A stretch of 64,000 nucleotides of DNA from a virus. The translations under genes and the position numbers were made by a program. How positions within the stretch are numbered: the stretch's first letter is position 1; each line of letters starts with the position of its first letter. Shown in pieces: positions 18,950 through 34,992 of the stretch. The stretch spans positions 32,001 to 96,000 of IMG/VR virus record IMGVR_UViG_3300034073_000569; one strand, 5' to 3'. Below the pieces are notes generated by a model. That model was not told where the DNA came from, searched no databases, and worked only from the letters and a program-made list of their open reading frames with translations.

Positions 18950-19180
18950 CTGGTCACAATATATGACCTTTTATATTTAGAACCTATTAGAAGTTGCGAA
19001 CTTCCCATGTGATCAGTCATGGTACGCGTACAATAGGTGACCTGGGGATACTATCCACAGGGTGGTAAAATGACTCAGACTAGTGAGGGTGTTTTAGCCA
19101 GTTAGACTGGTGTCCGCTATCCTTTCTGAGTACTGTTACTTTTATATCTTTTGGCAGGGGATTTTAACCCCCTGCCTCAG
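18950..19180 (-). ncRNA. Structured RNA between MCP and the next gene
   Basis: Multi-way junction closed by ACCTATT/AATAGGT, plus hairpins CCTGGGGATA/TATCCACAGG, ACTCAGA/TCTGAGT and GGCAGGGG/CCCCTGCC. Confidence 0.55.
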
Positions 19181-25310: not shown

Positions 25311-27503
25311 TTATTTCATATTTTTAAAGGGATTACGAGGGGCTCTTGACATACCTCCACCACCTTTAGAACCACCAATATGTCTAAAGGGGCTCCAATT
25401 TAATTTACTAAATTTCTGGGAGTTATCCAAGTTTTCTTTTGTAACTTCTACACGTTTAGTTAGTCCTCTATTACTCTGTTGTACCTTAGCAAACGCTATA
25501 AGGGCACAAAATGCTACTAAACGGTCAACGTTTAAGCCATCTCTATAAGCTTGCATCTCACGTAAAAGCATGATGTCAGGGATACGTTCTACACCATAAA
25601 CAGTTTTTACGATGTCACCGTTTTCTTTAGTCTCATGATCCAGCTCTTCTTTTAGGAATTCAATACCATAAGATAGTACGTTTCCTTTAAAGAGTGTACC
25701 AACGTTTTTCCATCCATACTCTTGGAATACGTTACGGTTGGCACCAATATCTTTTAAGAACAAAATCATGTCTTTTGGTACTAAGTATCGTTGCTTTCTT
25801 TTAGAGATCATATACTGAATGAATAAAGCTACGTTATTTTCCACAACTGTCCAAGCATTATACCACTCTATAAGAAGCTCAAGTCTTTCATGAGTTTTAT
25901 TAAGATCGTCAAAACGTCCACACCATGATGCTACAATCATGTCACGTTCTATCTCATTTTTAACCATTCCGTTACCATCATCTTTGATCACCTCTACTGG
26001 ATTCTTATATACGTATATAGAACATAGTGATTCTGAAGTAGTTGTCTTTCCTTCTCCAACAGGGTCCACAGAAGCATAGTACATCCCAAAAGGAGGATCT
26101 TTATGTGGTCTCTCGTAAATACACAACACTCCTTCTTTATCTTCAGTCTTTTTAGATATAGGAAACTCCATGATAGGAATCTTTCTAGATGGTTTATCTA
26201 TAATCTTTCCTTCAGCGTTACGAGAAAGCTCTAAATATTCTACAGGATATTCTTTATCTTGAATACGTTGCATCTGTTTAGCTACCAAGTGTGGTGGGAA
26301 TACACTCACCTTACGTGTAGCAAAAGCTTCTTCAATACAACGTGGTTGCTGTGAGACTGTCAACTGATAAGCTGCCGGATCTAAATCCTTCTTCATCTTA
26401 TCAAATTCTTTCTCTAGAGCCTCTAAAGCTTCCTCAACCTTAGAATTACCCCACTGATCAATATACGGAGGCATAGACCACTGTTCTGGGATAAATAGAC
26501 CGGTAATTCCTATTGTCCCATCTTTGTCTACAAGATTAGACTCTACACCATAGAATCCATTTTCTTCTGGATGCATGATATATTCTTTCATAGGTTCACA
26601 TTGATCCAAGTCACCGACAGATCCTGCTGCTATAAACTGACCAGTAATCATATGACCAGACTTTAATGCTGGCTTCATGAAACCATATGTGTCATCCATT
26701 TTAGGAGCAATACCAGCCTCCTCGTGAAAGAAGTATGTTACGGGTCCACCGACACCATGGGTAGGATCTTTCTCAAAAGAGTATAGGTTGATCGTGGATT
26801 TCAAACCTTTATAAGTATCACGACCACCTATCCTCACTTTAATCTGTTGCTGCCACGCCCCGACTTTGTCAGGCTCAGCTGGACGATACCAGGCTGTATG
26901 TTCATTTAAGAAGTTCTTATATTCATTAAGAAACTTCCATGAGCCTTTCTCGTTTATATAATCCTTTAGAGAAGCACCAATCTTTAACACAGCTCCTTCT
27001 TCAAACCAATACTGGTTAATTAGTTTAGCCATGTGGAAATAAGAAGATGCTATCTGACGCTTTTTTAGAATGATGGCATGCTTCCAATGCATTTCAGCAA
27101 GATGTTCATATAATGCCATGTGATATTGGGCATCTCTCACCTTAGCAAAGTCAAACCTCTTTTCTTCTTTATCATAGATAGGTAAGAAGTTTAACCACAT
27201 GTAATAATCTCTACTAACATACCAAGCTTTTCCGGCATCTTTTATGATTATACCATTACGGCATTTTGCTTTCTGATCATTCCAGTAAGCAATAAAGTCT
27301 TTAGTCTTTACAGGTGCTGCACAATAGTATCCTTGTTTCTGAAACTTACGACCTTCTTCATTGAAGATCTTACTAGTTTCATTAAACTCATACTTACCGG
27401 GTTCTTTGAATATAGATAATAAGAAGTCTCTAAACTCTTCTCTTGTATAGAAGGTAGTTACATCCCATGCTCCATTTTCATATGTAGGTATTTCTTTAAA
27501 CAT
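25311..27503 (-). CDS. terL: Terminase large subunit
   Basis: 730 aa; LKKRQIASS Walker A-type motif, FFHEEAG Walker B, ASVDP nuclease motif. Confidence 0.9.
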   Translation of the reverse strand: MFKEIPTYENGAWDVTTFYTREEFRDFLLSIFKEPGKYEFNETSKIFNEEGRKFQKQGYYCAAPVKTKDFIAYWNDQKAKCRNGIIIKDAGKAWYVSRDYYMWLNFLPIYDKEEKRFDFAKVRDAQYHMALYEHLAEMHWKHAIILKKRQIASSYFHMAKLINQYWFEEGAVLKIGASLKDYINEKGSWKFLNEYKNFLNEHTAWYRPAEPDKVGAWQQQIKVRIGGRDTYKGLKSTINLYSFEKDPTHGVGGPVTYFFHEEAGIAPKMDDTYGFMKPALKSGHMITGQFIAAGSVGDLDQCEPMKEYIMHPEENGFYGVESNLVDKDGTIGITGLFIPEQWSMPPYIDQWGNSKVEEALEALEKEFDKMKKDLDPAAYQLTVSQQPRCIEEAFATRKVSVFPPHLVAKQMQRIQDKEYPVEYLELSRNAEGKIIDKPSRKIPIMEFPISKKTEDKEGVLCIYERPHKDPPFGMYYASVDPVGEGKTTTSESLCSIYVYKNPVEVIKDDGNGMVKNEIERDMIVASWCGRFDDLNKTHERLELLIEWYNAWTVVENNVALFIQYMISKRKQRYLVPKDMILFLKDIGANRNVFQEYGWKNVGTLFKGNVLSYGIEFLKEELDHETKENGDIVKTVYGVERIPDIMLLREMQAYRDGLNVDRLVAFCALIAFAKVQQSNRGLTKRVEVTKENLDNSQKFSKLNWSPFRHIGGSKGGGGMSRAPRNPFKNMK

Positions 27504-27783: not shown

Positions 27784-27809
27784 ATTTTTAACATTTAATA
27801 TTTAATATT

Positions 27810-27903
27810 TTAGGAAAGCAGAAGATGGGTGCGTGGACATCTGCTTTTACGATTGGCTTTTCTAACCGGTTTGGCCCCTATGAGCAAATTCCAATCAACC
27901 TAA
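27810..27903 (-). ncRNA. Compact three-way-junction RNA of unknown family
   Basis: Stems TTAGG/CCTAA, GATTGG/CCAATC and AAAGCAGA/TCTGCTTT form a GC-richer island in an AT-rich spacer. Confidence 0.55.
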
Positions 27904-27907
27904 GTTT

Positions 27908-28315
27908 TTACTTATTGAATATTCTTTCTAAAAGACTTCTAGATTTTAAATACTCAATTTCTTCTTCTGCTTCAGATAAAGAACAAGATAATGACATCAT
28001 TTCTACTCTTAACATACGAACTGCTTCTTGTAGCTCATCTATAGCTTTTGAAGCTTTCATACCTTCAAAATTTACATGAAATAGTTCTGAACAATCTCTC
28101 TTTCTAGCATATGCATAGCCATATACAGAGTTTTTGCTCTTCATTTCTTTAAGTTTTTTTAACTCATCTTGTAACTCATGATACTCATCATAAGATACAG
28201 TTACGGTTGGTCTGTGTGTCATATCTTCTGTTTCTTGGTTTGTTTTATTTACTACATAGTCACTATAACTAGATGACATATGGTTAAGTAATAAAGGAAA
28301 TAACATTGGTCCCAT
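27908..28315 (-). CDS. Hypothetical coiled-coil protein (start 28315 or 28222)
   Basis: The track start at 28378 lies inside the tRNA-like gene; ATGs with A-rich leaders occur at 28315 and 28222. Confidence 0.6.
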   Translation of the reverse strand: MGPMLFPLLLNHMSSSYSDYVVNKTNQETEDMTHRPTVTVSYDEYHELQDELKKLKEMKSKNSVYGYAYARKRDCSELFHVNFEGMKASKAIDELQEAVRMLRVEMMSLSCSLSEAEEEIEYLKSRSLLERIFNK

Positions 28316-28329
28316 GTTTATAAAATTAG

Positions 28330-28498
28330 CTGTAGAGGGTGGACTCGAACCACCAAGGTGAGATTCAATTGATAACACAACGCTTGCAAGCTGGTGGTCT
28401 ACCCCATATTATCAATCTATTTCTGTATCACCGCCCACGAGACAGGTGGGTACGTTTGCCGTGGCCATACTGAGACAGCCATATTTCGTCACTCTACA
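28330..28498 (-). tRNA. Enlarged tRNA-like RNA (nominal anticodon GTC) with D-loop and variable-arm insertions
   Basis: Acceptor TGTAGAG/CTCTACA; T-arm GGTGG-TTCGAGT-CCACC; anticodon arm CCCAC-CTGTCTC-GTGGG; 169 nt. Confidence 0.75.
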
Positions 28499-28505
28499 AT
28501 TTTAC

Positions 28506-29156
28506 TTATTTATTATACTCGTAGTTTAATATCTGTCCTACTAAGTCACTACGGTGGTTCTCTTTTAGTTTAATCCATTTAATGCCATCAATCTTTTTAG
28601 ATAGTTCAATAGCATAAGTTAATCCAGTGGTAGCATCTTTTGTATCTTGCTGCTCATTATCACCGTTCACAATAATCTTACCAGTCTTACCAAGTCTAGT
28701 TAAAATAGCAAGCATCTCAGCTTTACTCAAGTTTTGTGCTTCTTCTACAACAAGAATATCGTCAATGGTTTTACCACGGATAAACTGTACGGGATAAGCT
28801 ACGATCTTCTCGTCTTTTACCATAGCTTGAATCTTAACTTTATCTGCACACTTAACCAAGTTTTCTTGGAATGCTTCTAAATAAGGGTTAAACTTGTCTT
28901 CTAAACTACCCGGTAAATACCCTAATGAATTACCCACTTCTATAGTAGCACGTGTGATATAAATATGATCACATTGTTTCTTGTTTAAGAAATCTAGTGC
29001 ACTTAATGCACATACTAGCGATTTACCAGATCCAGCTCTACCAGTTACTATGACAATCTGATTTTCTATAATCAAACGTCTAGCTTCTTTCTGCTCATCA
29101 TTAAGATTAACATGATACTTGATCTCTTGTTTACGTTCTCTGTTTGGTTCTTTCAT
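28506..29156 (-). CDS. phoH: PhoH-like ATPase
   Basis: GRAGSGKS, LGYLPG, FIRGKT, VEEAQN, LTRLG, GDNEQQD motifs. Confidence 0.92.
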   Translation of the reverse strand: MKEPNRERKQEIKYHVNLNDEQKEARRLIIENQIVIVTGRAGSGKSLVCALSALDFLNKKQCDHIYITRATIEVGNSLGYLPGSLEDKFNPYLEAFQENLVKCADKVKIQAMVKDEKIVAYPVQFIRGKTIDDILVVEEAQNLSKAEMLAILTRLGKTGKIIVNGDNEQQDTKDATTGLTYAIELSKKIDGIKWIKLKENHRSDLVGQILNYEYNK

Positions 29157-29163
29157 AGTTTTC

Positions 29164-29676
29164 TTATTGGTCATATGCAAGGTTTTGTCCGCCTCTAACT
29201 TGTGATTGTTGTTCTTCCATTAAATCTCTGTACACACCTTTAAAGCTTTGTCTAACAGAGTCAAATCTTTCTGCAATTCTAAGAATAGCTGTAGCAGATC
29301 CATCTCTACCAGAGGTTACCTTTTCTGTGGCCATAAAACCTGCCATATTATCTAGGGCAATCTTTATACCTTGGTATGCTCTATATGTAGGAGTCTCATA
29401 CATTTTCTTACACATTCTTAATGCATTCACTACAAGATCATCTTCTGTAGAAAAGTCTCCATCCACCTCACCAAGAATTATTTCTTCTTTGTCCGTTTCT
29501 GGTACATCAAAGAAAGGATTTAAATCTGGGTTAGGACAAGTCATGTAGAATAGATATGAATAAACCTTTGTAGATTCATCACCATATTCTTCCATAATGT
29601 CTTTTAAAAATTTCAATGTGTAACAGTGTTCACTAGGAACCACTTTACCATTAGCTATATCAAATAGTCTTACCAT
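29164..29676 (-). CDS. Conserved hypothetical protein (possible terminase small subunit)
   Basis: 170 aa helical protein upstream of phoH and terL; C-terminal VRGG. Confidence 0.45.
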   Translation of the reverse strand: MVRLFDIANGKVVPSEHCYTLKFLKDIMEEYGDESTKVYSYLFYMTCPNPDLNPFFDVPETDKEEIILGEVDGDFSTEDDLVVNALRMCKKMYETPTYRAYQGIKIALDNMAGFMATEKVTSGRDGSATAILRIAERFDSVRQSFKGVYRDLMEEQQSQVRGGQNLAYDQ

Positions 29677-31880: not shown

Positions 31881-32232
31881 CGCTTAAAAATTTATAGTCT
31901 AACAAAATATTTCCATTAGCGTGTAACTTAAGATCAGGATTAATAAAGATCTTCTTCTTATTCTTTCCTTCCTTTTTAATAAGTCCTTTCTTCTCTGCCT
32001 TTGTCAAACAGTTACGTACAGACTGTGTGCTAGAGAATATCTTCTTGTCGTATGCTTTGTTACAGAAATGCGTAAGTTCTTGGTCTCCCTCAATTGCCAG
32101 GAATGTAAGACAGTTTAAATCTGCTTCACTCACTGGAATATCAAAGAGATAGCAATGTGTGAGTATCTGATATTTGACAATCTGCCAAGTGGTCATCCTC
32201 ACTCTTTTATCCACCTGATTAACTAGTGCCAT
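31870..32232 (-). CDS. Winged-helix protein
   Basis: SVRNCLTKAEKKGLI...IFINP. Confidence 0.6.
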   Translation of the reverse strand: MALVNQVDKRVRMTTWQIVKYQILTHCYLFDIPVSEADLNCLTFLAIEGDQELTHFCNKAYDKKIFSSTQSVRNCLTKAEKKGLIKKEGKNKKKIFINPDLKLHANGNILLDYKFLSVEA

Positions 32233-32663
32233 TATAATGTTATTTTAAAACTCATGTAATCTTCTTTTGTCTTGTTCCAATCCTTATGTAAAAGAACTGA
32301 CTCTGCTCCTAGGTTTTTGAATATGTGCCAGCTAGCTCCATCACGAGCTTCTCCTGTAATATATTCGTAACCCATTTCCTGTGCCCAATCCATAAGAGAA
32401 TGGATCATTTCATATCCTAATCCTTTTCCCCTATGGCTTGGTAGTACAGTGAAACTATCTATGTGTAGTACATTGGCACTTTGCCATGATACAATAATCT
32501 CTCCAAATAATACTGACTTCTCGTAGAACCACATGCCTTGACAGGTCTCATGTTCTACTAACATATATAACTTGTACTTATTATCCCATCTAAGCTCCTT
32601 TGGATGTTCACGTTCAAACTGATATGATAGTGAATAATCCTTTAGCTTATATACTACGTTCAT
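32232..32663 (-). CDS. GNAT acetyltransferase
   Basis: VLPSHRGKGLG acetyl-CoA-binding motif A. Confidence 0.85.
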   Translation of the reverse strand: MNVVYKLKDYSLSYQFEREHPKELRWDNKYKLYMLVEHETCQGMWFYEKSVLFGEIIVSWQSANVLHIDSFTVLPSHRGKGLGYEMIHSLMDWAQEMGYEYITGEARDGASWHIFKNLGAESVLLHKDWNKTKEDYMSFKITL

Positions 32664-34886: not shown

Positions 34887-34992
34887 AGTCAGGTGGCGGA
34901 ATGGTATACGCAGGGCATTACAACCACCAAGAGATAATATCAAAGGTGTCCTATTCAAGAGTTGTTTACAGGTTCGAATCCTGTCCTGACTG
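34887..34992 (+). tRNA. tRNA-like gene with an expanded anticodon loop (identity undetermined)
   Basis: Acceptor AGTCAGG/CCTGACT; D-arm GCG-GAATGGTATA-CGC; T-arm ACAGG-TTCGAAT-CCTGT; ~27-nt loop in the anticodon arm. Confidence 0.75.

Follow-up and report, generated by a model that had tools for sequence, protein, structure and literature searches.

Positions 28330–28498 on the minus strand of a 64,000-nt stretch of DNA from a lake phage (hereafter, the window; bases 32001–96000 of the 127.6-kb IMG/VR virus record IMGVR_UViG_3300034073_000569, judged 98% complete) fold into a tRNA with two large additional domains, and this locus raises the question whether such a sequence is a decayed or intron-bearing tRNA, a working tRNA of unusual shape, or an RNA that employs the tRNA frame for a different purpose. 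The evidence outlined here indicates that the element is a real, expressed RNA gene of 169 bases and, as judged from sequence comparison, the phage-borne copy of a tRNA-shaped RNA family that is native to Bacteroidota, especially Cytophagales. As to its role, the best available reading, to which we give somewhat less than an even chance, is that of a non-decoding RNA that is matured like a tRNA, is recognized and perhaps aspartylated by aspartyl-tRNA synthetase (AspRS), and acts off the ribosome through a giant variable arm, the phage supplying its own decorated copy.

The element contains all the parts of the tRNA architecture, namely a 7-bp acceptor stem, a D arm with G18 G19, a 5-bp anticodon stem with a 7-nt loop, and a 5-bp T stem with a loop of the TTCRANY type (Table 1), and the minimum-energy fold yields all the helices listed. 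The first-pass annotation, made from the letters alone, described a 169-nt tRNA scaffold with two extra domains, and every feature that it named is present on the minus strand at this position: intact acceptor, T and anticodon arms, in the sequence as well as in the fold; a D-loop hairpin that repeats the anticodon-loop heptamer CTGTCTC; and a pyrimidine at position 37. Its stems and two small hairpins of the variable arm are found as well, in a variable region of 79 nt rather than the approximately 75 nt that it gave. The tail that follows G73 is CTA without an encoded CCA, as reported there, but this is no anomaly: among ordinary tRNA-Leu genes from Bacteroidota genomes, no more than 3 of 11 encode CCA, as do 17 of 110 bacterial members of the family discussed below, and all of them keep C74. 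The fold energy by itself is unremarkable (z = -1.26; 19 of 200 shuffled sequences are as stable). The heptamer CTGTCTC occurs five times on the two strands of the window, and two of these occurrences are within the element; the chance of a second copy falling there is estimated at about 1%.

Table 1. Parts of the tRNA-shaped RNA gene and its immediate neighbors; all positions are those of the window
Feature	Position	Strand	Basis or remark
Whole tRNA-shaped RNA gene, 169 nt, from U1 (28498) to discriminator G73 (28330)	28330..28498	-	sequence, fold, model R1
Acceptor 5' strand TGTAGAG (U1, G2)	28492..28498	-	pairs with 28331-28337
Acceptor 3' strand CTCTACA	28331..28337	-	sequence; family covariation
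D arm, 3-bp D stem ACG/CGT around the D loop; G18 G19 at 28460-28459	28452..28489	-	
Extra D-loop hairpin TGGCTGT-CTCAGT-ATGGCCA, 20 nt, just before the retained G18 G19	28462..28481	-	
Anticodon arm CCCAC-CUGUCUC-GUGGG; G34 U35 C36 at 28443-28441, U37 at 28440	28434..28450	-	
Variable region, 79 nt	28355..28433	-	architecture common to bacterial members
P1 of the variable arm, GGTGA/TCACC	28432-28428 / 28361-28357	-	
A-rich internal loop of the variable arm	28427-28417 / 28367-28362	-	
P2 of the variable arm, 11 bp, ATTGATAATAT/GTGTTATCAAT	28416-28406 / 28378-28368	-	
Conserved small GACCAC hairpin of the variable arm, GGGGUAGACCACC	28393..28405	-	
Palindromic hairpin of the variable arm, GCUUGCAAGC	28382..28391	-	fold
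T arm GGUGG-UUCGAGU-CCACC, canonical T loop	28338..28354	-	sequence
phoH, upstream gene	28506..29180	-	PHROG 170 at 9e-57; Pfam PhoH at 2e-48
135-aa downstream open reading frame, function not assigned	27908..28315	-	ATG 14 nt after G73
Terminase unit, downstream of the 135-aa frame	25311-27503		

Homologs of the element in other phages were gathered via PhoH (80 loci), with an exact 25-mer (26 loci), and with a 15-nt pattern (at least 118 loci). The 210 phage loci gathered yield 50 distinct full-length versions, on which all counts of phage versions rest. The 25 versions of the 169/170-nt class form a close-relative alignment of 23 distinct rows, in which 99.3% of the cells pair, and 8 of the 50 pairs show changes on both sides, compared with 4.1 ± 0.8 in shuffled alignments (none of 500 reaches 8, and six slid controls all give 0). 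These compensatory pairs are spread over five of the nine helices, with one pair each in the D stem and the anticodon stem and two each in the D hairpin, P1, and P2. For example, pair 10:25 of the D stem changes from A-U to G-C in 7 of the 23 rows; of the seven pairs of the D-loop hairpin, one changes from U-A to G-C in 8 rows and another is C-G in 11 rows and U-A in 12. The palindromic hairpin is constant in all 23 rows and the GACCAC hairpin in all but one, so that covariation neither supports nor contradicts either of these small hairpins. Given that both inserts covary among close phage relatives, pseudogene decay, one of the two scenarios by which the first-pass annotation could have failed, is rejected.

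The second such scenario, excision of the inserts to give a normal tRNA-Asp, is ruled out by RNA data. In all four sequencing runs compared, which come from four studies, RNA-library contigs of 93–206 nt with depths of 6–30 span positions 28333–28469; adapter-like letters abut them at 28337/28339 and at 28479. They run through the variable arm uninterrupted, with no joint that skips an insert, and hence the inserts are not spliced out and an intron-bearing tRNA is rejected; both inserts are also below the size of group I introns. The contigs attest the body of the RNA and cannot reveal its true ends or a CCA. The phoH and downstream coding flanks are uncovered in the four runs, except for a 70-nt piece with six mismatches in run X1; since missing cover does not count as evidence, this pattern is not used to argue that the small RNA alone accumulates. 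One contig of run X6 "goes back 108" between two partial copies, which is taken for an assembly join between variants. In all six listed sequencing runs, the share of words present is small (0.04–0.07).

The phage versions of this RNA come in discrete sizes (86, 95–98, 110, 117–118, 145–146, 151–153, 156–160, and 169–170 nt), with half of the 50 in the largest class. The core is nearly constant, and the length of the variable arm increases in steps from 17 to 90 nt. Only the 169/170-nt class (25 of 50 versions) has the D-loop hairpin, and a long D arm is found in only one of the 110 bacterial members and in none of the 39 that form the unbiased set defined below; by this distribution, the hairpin is essentially a phage-specific addition. 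Its TGTCTC word is kept in 24 of the 25 close relatives while the stem covaries; the remaining one, L162, has a different loop. The anticodon loop is CTGTCTC in 42 of the 50 phage versions and TTGTTTC in five (GUU, an asparagine-type anticodon, again with U37); the other three are CTGTCCC, an 8-nt loop, and, in L199, the canonical CTGTCAC. Thus, position 37 is a pyrimidine in 49 of the 50.

A search with the anticodon-arm pattern identifies at least 120 bacterial loci in species-representative genomes, mostly in Bacteroidota (Saprospiraceae, Cyclobacteriaceae, Cytophagales, Chitinophagales, Dyadobacter, Spirosoma, Algoriphagus, and Arcicella). The covariance-model search for homologs that the first-pass annotation had proposed reveals a large family in bacteria and phages. 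The model used (R1), built from nine short and medium phage versions only, matches the element at exactly 28330–28498 on the minus strand over all of its positions (1–100 of 100), with 67.3 bits and an E-value of 6e-14; at E<=1 it gives no match at another tRNA-like candidate, 18981–19038 (minus strand). In the first 100 pattern-found bacterial loci, R1 produces 114 matches, of which 110 (87–192 nt, approximately 44–82 bits) were retained, two truncated ones and two at about 26 bits being dropped; over the pattern-found and Cytophagales scans, bacterial members score 55–89 bits (against the approximately 44–82 reported for the retained set). R1 also matches ordinary tRNA-Leu genes at 52–57 bits. 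In a phylum-wide sample, long members are present in 8 of 151 genomes, and ten other genomes have matches to ordinary tRNA-Leu only. In Cytophagales (the order of Algoriphagus, G006), by comparison, 93 of 151 sampled genomes have an R1 match at E<=1e-9, and tandem arrays reach six copies.

In the joint alignment of bacterial and phage members (68 matches, 67 distinct rows), 99.0% of the cells pair and 15 of the 20 core pairs covary, a number reached by none of 500 shuffles; this includes five of the seven acceptor pairs and four of the five T-stem pairs. Taken together, the R1 match, the compensatory changes in five of nine helices, and the covariation of the core indicate that the element is more than a chance structure. 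The base pairs U1-A72 and G2-C71 are invariant in all 67 rows, and G73 is present in all family members. To assess the loop, an unbiased bacterial set was used, i.e., 39 matches at 29 loci found without reference to the loop, tandem copies among them not being independent. The loops in this set are CTGTCTC (22), CGGTCTC (5), CCGTCTC (5), CTATCTC (3), CTATCCC (2), CTCTCTC (1), and CTTTCTC (1), so that C32, U35, C36, a pyrimidine at position 37 (Y37), and C38 are invariant, as is the combination of T1 with G73, while U33 is replaced in 10 of the 39 members and G34 in 7. The element conforms to the resulting family rule, C32-N-N-U35-C36-Y37-C38 together with U1-A72, G2-C71 and G73. It also has the family arm, a helical variable arm of at least 17 nt with an A-rich internal loop, which is common to the family, and, in long members, the GACCAC hairpin. 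The word GGGKWGACCAC of this hairpin is present in 35 of the 50 phage versions and, among bacterial members, in 56 of the 74 that measure at least 130 nt but in none of the 36 shorter ones. Pairing of the GACCAC hairpin with the 5' strand of the T stem was considered and dropped: bacterial T stems read GGAGG while the word stays GACCAC, without covariation.

The family is uncatalogued. At the element, ARAGORN, one of the checks named in the first-pass annotation, reports no tRNA whether or not introns are allowed, and with the -m option it finds no tmRNA in the genome; it labels the 95-nt phage relatives tRNA-Asp(gtc). Rfam gives no match for the element at gathering scores and none over 27800–29000 at E<=10. 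The Rfam tRNA model, RF00005, assigns the element 11.2 bits, from the T arm only, compared with a gathering score of 29 bits. Literature searches turned up no paper on the family, and Rfam holds no matching model.

In bacteria, the RNA is associated with a distinct locus. A divergent gene of 155 aa, located at a median distance of 156 nt upstream on the opposite strand and identified by Pfam as an Lrp/AsnC regulator, is present in 51 of 88 pattern-found loci and in 22 of 37 loci of the unbiased set; beyond it, among the 88 loci, lie genes for SufB (26 loci) and SufC (16 loci). All five RNA-bearing complete genomes that were inspected also encode an ordinary class I tRNA-Asp with the loop CTGTCAC (a reversed-pattern control gives 0), and these host tRNAs have G1-C72, G10, and a 5-nt variable loop. 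In two genomes, G227 and G306, the giant-armed RNA forms a tandem array of six copies, and ordinary tRNA-Asp genes form one of seven. By blastn, the nearest bacterial members are in Arcicella, Flectobacillus, and Spirosoma records, over 27–47 nt only, and such matches are too weak to name a host.

Decoding tRNAs near-universally have U33 and a purine at position 37. The element has U33 and, at position 37, U; and in place of the 4–5-nt variable region, G1-C72, and G10 of a class I tRNA-Asp it has 79 nt, U1-A72, and A10. The T stem points in the same direction. Using the additive T-stem values for pairs 49-65, 50-64, and 51-63 given in Table 2 of PMC3239215, in which a higher number of kcal/mol means weaker binding of EF-Tu, the stem GC/GC/UA of the element is predicted at +0.6 kcal/mol, the commonest bacterial stem of the family, GC/GU/AU, at +2.1, the unbiased bacterial members at a median of +2.0 (34 of 39 scored), and the phage versions at a median of +1.0 (48 of 50 scored), compared with -1.1 for the ordinary tRNA-Asp of the same bacteria. 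Thus, the family T stems are predicted to be of a weak EF-Tu-binding type. Aspartate itself is a weak contributor to EF-Tu binding, and, in conjunction with a weak T stem, this would make an aspartylated member a poor EF-Tu ligand. The pyrimidine at position 37 throughout, the losses of U33 and G34, the weak-type T stems, and the separate ordinary tRNA-Asp are together best compatible with an RNA that does not decode, and so favor the non-decoding tRNA mimic that the first-pass annotation had suggested.

With respect to a synthetase, the set of identity elements for aspartate in E. coli comprises G73, G2-C71, G10, G34, U35, C36, and C38. The element carries six of these seven marks, G10 being the one that is missing, and the family-invariant U35, C36, C38, G73, and G2-C71 belong to the same set. 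Charging by AspRS is therefore plausible on sequence grounds, and only plausible, because most members of the family lack G10 and some have another base in place of G34. The possibility that U33-G34-U35 serves as the recognition word for queuosine insertion by TGT was dropped given that positions 33 and 34 vary in bacterial members.

These observations are compatible with the following tentative scenario for the phage element. It would be transcribed with phoH or just after it, and the host tRNA enzymes would excise the RNA, RNase P at the 5' end and RNase Z with CCA addition at the 3' end; such excision is suggested by the complete tRNA frame formed by the acceptor, D and T parts. The maturation by RNase P that the first-pass annotation envisaged is plausible from the intact frame. 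The excised product would accumulate as a stable RNA of about 170 nt that reads no codons, its loop breaking the decoding rules and its T stem being of a type predicted to bind EF-Tu poorly. It would most likely dock on AspRS, given the overlap of U1-A72, G2-C71, G73, and C32/U35/C36/Y37/C38 with AspRS marks, and would probably be charged with aspartate. The giant variable arm, with its A-rich internal loop and GACCAC hairpin, might then serve as a handle for a further partner off the ribosome, and the phage copy might supply or override the host function during infection.

Several observations weigh against this non-decoding, AspRS-linked role. The T stem of the element itself is only mildly weak, and the additive model was derived for E. 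coli and Thermus. The element and 45 of the 67 rows have A at position 10, and G34, a recognized Asp mark, is replaced in 7 of the 39 unbiased bacterial members. Engineered aptamer-tagged tRNAs are translationally active (PMC7590224), so that a long variable arm is by itself no bar to translation. No conserved partner protein beyond the synteny with the terminase unit is found in 98 phage contexts, and the phage neighbors belong to no informative family. Finally, the Lrp/AsnC gene is absent from all 50 phage loci and from this genome; its proximity is a feature of the bacterial locus rather than of the RNA, and the phage carries the RNA without its presumed regulator.

The alternatives must accommodate the same pattern, and each leaves part of it unexplained. 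The element could be a working tRNA-Asp whose unusual loop and arms protect it from a nuclease or modifier with which the host attacks the ordinary tRNA-Asp, which would allow the phage to keep translating GAC and GAU. The complete cloverleaf with a GUC anticodon and G73, the ARAGORN label of the 95-nt relatives, the canonical loop of L199, the five phage versions with GUU loops, and the location of the RNA 8 nt after a normal tRNA-Cys gene in some relatives all fit this idea; moreover, phage tRNAs that evade host tRNases through anticodon-loop mutations are described (PMC10264068 and PMC13056530), and the possible tolerance of translation for long arms (PMC7590224) is in its favor. Nevertheless, it appears unlikely, considering that Y37 is family-wide, that U33 and G34 are lost in a sizeable part of the bacterial members (10 and 7 of 39), that the T stems are of the weak EF-Tu type, and that the phage has no other ordinary tRNA. 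Furthermore, the family is chromosomal in bacteria that possess ordinary tRNA-Asp genes and hence did not originate as a phage escape variant. A decoy or sponge, in which one or two UGUCUC loops displayed on a stable tRNA frame soak up a host defense factor that recognizes the loop or the tRNA body, would account for the repetition of CTGTCTC in a D-loop hairpin that only phage versions typically possess, for the retention of the word while the stem around it covaries, and for the strong differences in the peripheral domains between related phages around a fixed core. Known tRNA-targeting defenses and phage tRNA countermeasures (PMC10264068 and PMC13056530) provide a precedent. However, the scaffold, the loop, and the giant arm are native to bacteria, where they occupy a conserved, Lrp/AsnC-adjacent chromosomal locus, which argues that the RNA has a cellular job borrowed by the phage; the role of decoy for anticodon nucleases that the first-pass annotation put forward is thus not sustained as the primary one. 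The different hairpin loop of L162 and the predicted partial pairing of the UGUCUC word in the D-loop hairpin also count against it, and to our knowledge no defense nuclease specific for tRNA-Asp has been described; a decoy is accordingly rated as quite unlikely.

Still less is to be said for a pure processing signal ("tRNA punctuation"), whereby cuts by RNase P and RNase Z separate the phoH message from that of the terminase module. The element does lie on the coding strand, starting 7 nt after the phoH stop codon and leaving 14 nt to the start codon that follows; its position is conserved, with the terminase downstream in most phage contexts; and a second tRNA-framed family in the same phage retains only the acceptor, D, and T parts, with the middle free. 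Yet RNase P and RNase Z require neither an anticodon loop nor a variable arm, both of which are conserved and covarying here, the RNA stands alone as a gene in bacteria, where it is often tandemly repeated, and the RNA-library contigs contain the RNA itself and not merely its flanks, so that this explanation is improbable. A more elaborate version of the aminoacylated-RNA idea casts the family as a dedicated off-ribosome aminoacyl carrier: AspRS would load aspartate by way of U35, C36, C38, and G73, GatCAB would convert it to asparagine on the RNA, and the giant arm would pass the residue or its state to a partner under Lrp/AsnC control, a circuit that the phage copy with its added D-loop hairpin would take over. 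The U1-A72 pair is the mark by which GatCAB recognizes tRNA-Asn and tRNA-Gln and tells tRNA-Asn from tRNA-Asp, and the asparagine anticodon GUU of some phage versions is compatible with the carrier. The presence of GatB does not discriminate, being nearly universal in Cytophagales (137 of 151 genomes; most of the 14 without it are small, nine of them at approximately 1.5–1.7 Mb). AsnRS and an AsnB-type synthase are each encoded in all five RNA-bearing complete genomes, so that such a carrier is not needed for making asparagine; this weakens the idea and rejects the RNA as the only or obligatory route to asparagine. GlnRS is present in two of the five, which leaves GatCAB with its ordinary job in the other three; in the RNA-rich G227 and G306, GatB occurs alongside AsnRS as well as GlnRS. 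All in all, the carrier seems a long shot.

Comparison with the nearest known systems indicates that the RNA lacks defining features of each. It shares with tRNA-Asp(GUC) (class I, RF00005) the 7/5 cloverleaf, the canonical T loop, G18 G19, G2-C71, G73, and a loop with C32, U33, G34, U35, C36, and C38, but differs in having U37 rather than A37, U1-A72 rather than G1-C72, A10 rather than G10, a 79-nt rather than a 5-nt variable region, and a T stem of a weaker EF-Tu type, as well as in the 20-nt hairpin of the D loop. With class II tRNA-Leu, it has in common the 3-bp D stem, a D loop of the AAUUGGCARA type, and a helical variable arm; the element and its family differ from tRNA-Leu in G73 instead of A73, U1-A72, the Asp-type loop, and an arm of up to about 90 nt. 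Given that A73 matters for leucine identity, G73 together with U1-A72 and the Asp-type loop makes leucine identity unlikely. The non-proteinogenic tRNA-Gly of Staphylococcus aureus, which PMC7826273 describes as charged yet partitioned from EF-Tu and the ribosome for another pathway, offers a likeness in concept; it is of normal size and its client is the synthesis of the peptidoglycan bridge, so that size, loop, and client all differ, and charging is hypothetical in our case. The allo-tRNAs are long-armed tRNAs from metagenomes and phages with unexpected anticodons, for which a role in suppression and/or regulation has been proposed (PMC5389517). Their acceptor/T branches are 8/4 or 9/3 and their identity is serine, unlike the 7/5 element with its Asp-type loop and far larger arm. 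An 8/4 branch is excluded in the element, where T8 and C65 cannot pair. YrlA RNAs have a Ro-binding helix in place of the anticodon arm. These and other bacterial Y RNAs resemble the element as non-coding RNAs of bacteria and phages that mimic tRNA (PMC4201824), but the element keeps a full anticodon arm and matches no Rfam family. Like the engineered aptamer-tagged tRNAs, it has a structured RNA module on a tRNA chassis; those are man-made and translationally active (PMC7590224), whereas the element occurs in nature, is far bigger, and has a loop that breaks the decoding rules.

Although tRNAs are among the best-catalogued genes, this tRNA-shaped family, which about 60% of the sampled Cytophagales genomes and many of their phages contain, escapes ARAGORN and Rfam, which reveals a systematic blind spot of tRNA finders. 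The conservation pattern suggests that the machinery for tRNA maturation, and probably that for charging, is used here for a non-decoding purpose; if so, the few non-proteinogenic tRNAs and tRNA mimics on record would be joined by a bacterial and phage example. That phages repeatedly carry and embellish the RNA, giving it at least six sizes of arm and a D-loop hairpin of their own, suggests that the host function matters during infection. The family also provides natural evidence on the size of the structured module that a tRNA frame can carry, which is useful for the engineering of tRNA scaffolds.

Turning to the genomic setting, protein family searches identify portal, large terminase, and PhoH genes on the minus strand of the window. 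The large terminase shares only 24–25% identity with its counterparts in Crassvirales phages that infect Bacteroides, Flavobacterium, and Cellulophaga, so that the virus is a distant crAss-like phage. A blastn search of 28200–28650 against the GenBank phage collection gives no match. The neighboring open reading frames of 170, 135, and 95 aa have no PHROG or Pfam family, and for that of 170 aa an Atlas search returned only viral hypothetical clusters. Among the 98 phage contexts, in which some contigs are represented twice, the following genes all share the strand of the RNA: the terminase large subunit is found downstream in 83, a small frame separates it from the RNA in 77, the 170-aa frame is upstream in 79, and PhoH is directly upstream (median 7 nt) in 49. 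In relatives L089, L092, L096, L104, and L107, phoH is replaced by an ordinary 72-nt tRNA-Cys(GCA) with A37 and U73, located 8 nt upstream, and the RNA can therefore belong to a small tRNA cluster. In more distant PhoH relatives, a protein gene or a normal tRNA-Met occupies its place. In loci L055–L065, where PhoH is 77–78% identical, a conserved, apparently structured spacer of about 130 nt lies between phoH and a normal tRNA-Met; GATCGAAGACAGGAATTACAGA and GGTTAGCACAGTTAGTAGTTCTGGGGGTATTC are among the words shared by these loci, and the spacer is possibly a further RNA element.

A sigma-70-like site (28512–28539, minus strand; AGGACA, 16 nt, TATAAT; 10 of 12 positions) ends 14 nt before the 5' end of the RNA, inside the 3' end of phoH. 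The promoter scan is not above chance in this region (four sites compared with 5.7 expected), and Bacteroidota promoters fall outside its scope. About 4 kb upstream, in the same operon direction, a gene at 32232–32663 (minus strand) encodes a 143-aa acetyltransferase of the GNAT family (Pfam Acetyltransf_1, 7.6e-11); some GNAT toxins acetylate aminoacyl-tRNAs.

The phage genome contains no ordinary tRNA, and, by ARAGORN and Rfam, its sole other tRNA-like gene is located at 34887–34992 on the plus strand (Rfam tRNA, 39.3 bits; "tRNA-Cys(aca)" with a 22-nt intron in ARAGORN -i). It belongs to a very large phage family: an exact 18-mer from the acceptor and D arm occurs at no fewer than 119 IMG/VR loci, with up to three copies per contig. 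A tRNA-Leu-like frame of acceptor, D arm, and T arm is retained in at least 119 distinct sequences, with A as the discriminator in 97 of 105 complete copies. The total length varies from 73 to 172 nt, the middle is hypervariable and mostly without an anticodon loop, and 59 of the 105 copies are co-oriented with both flanking open reading frames.

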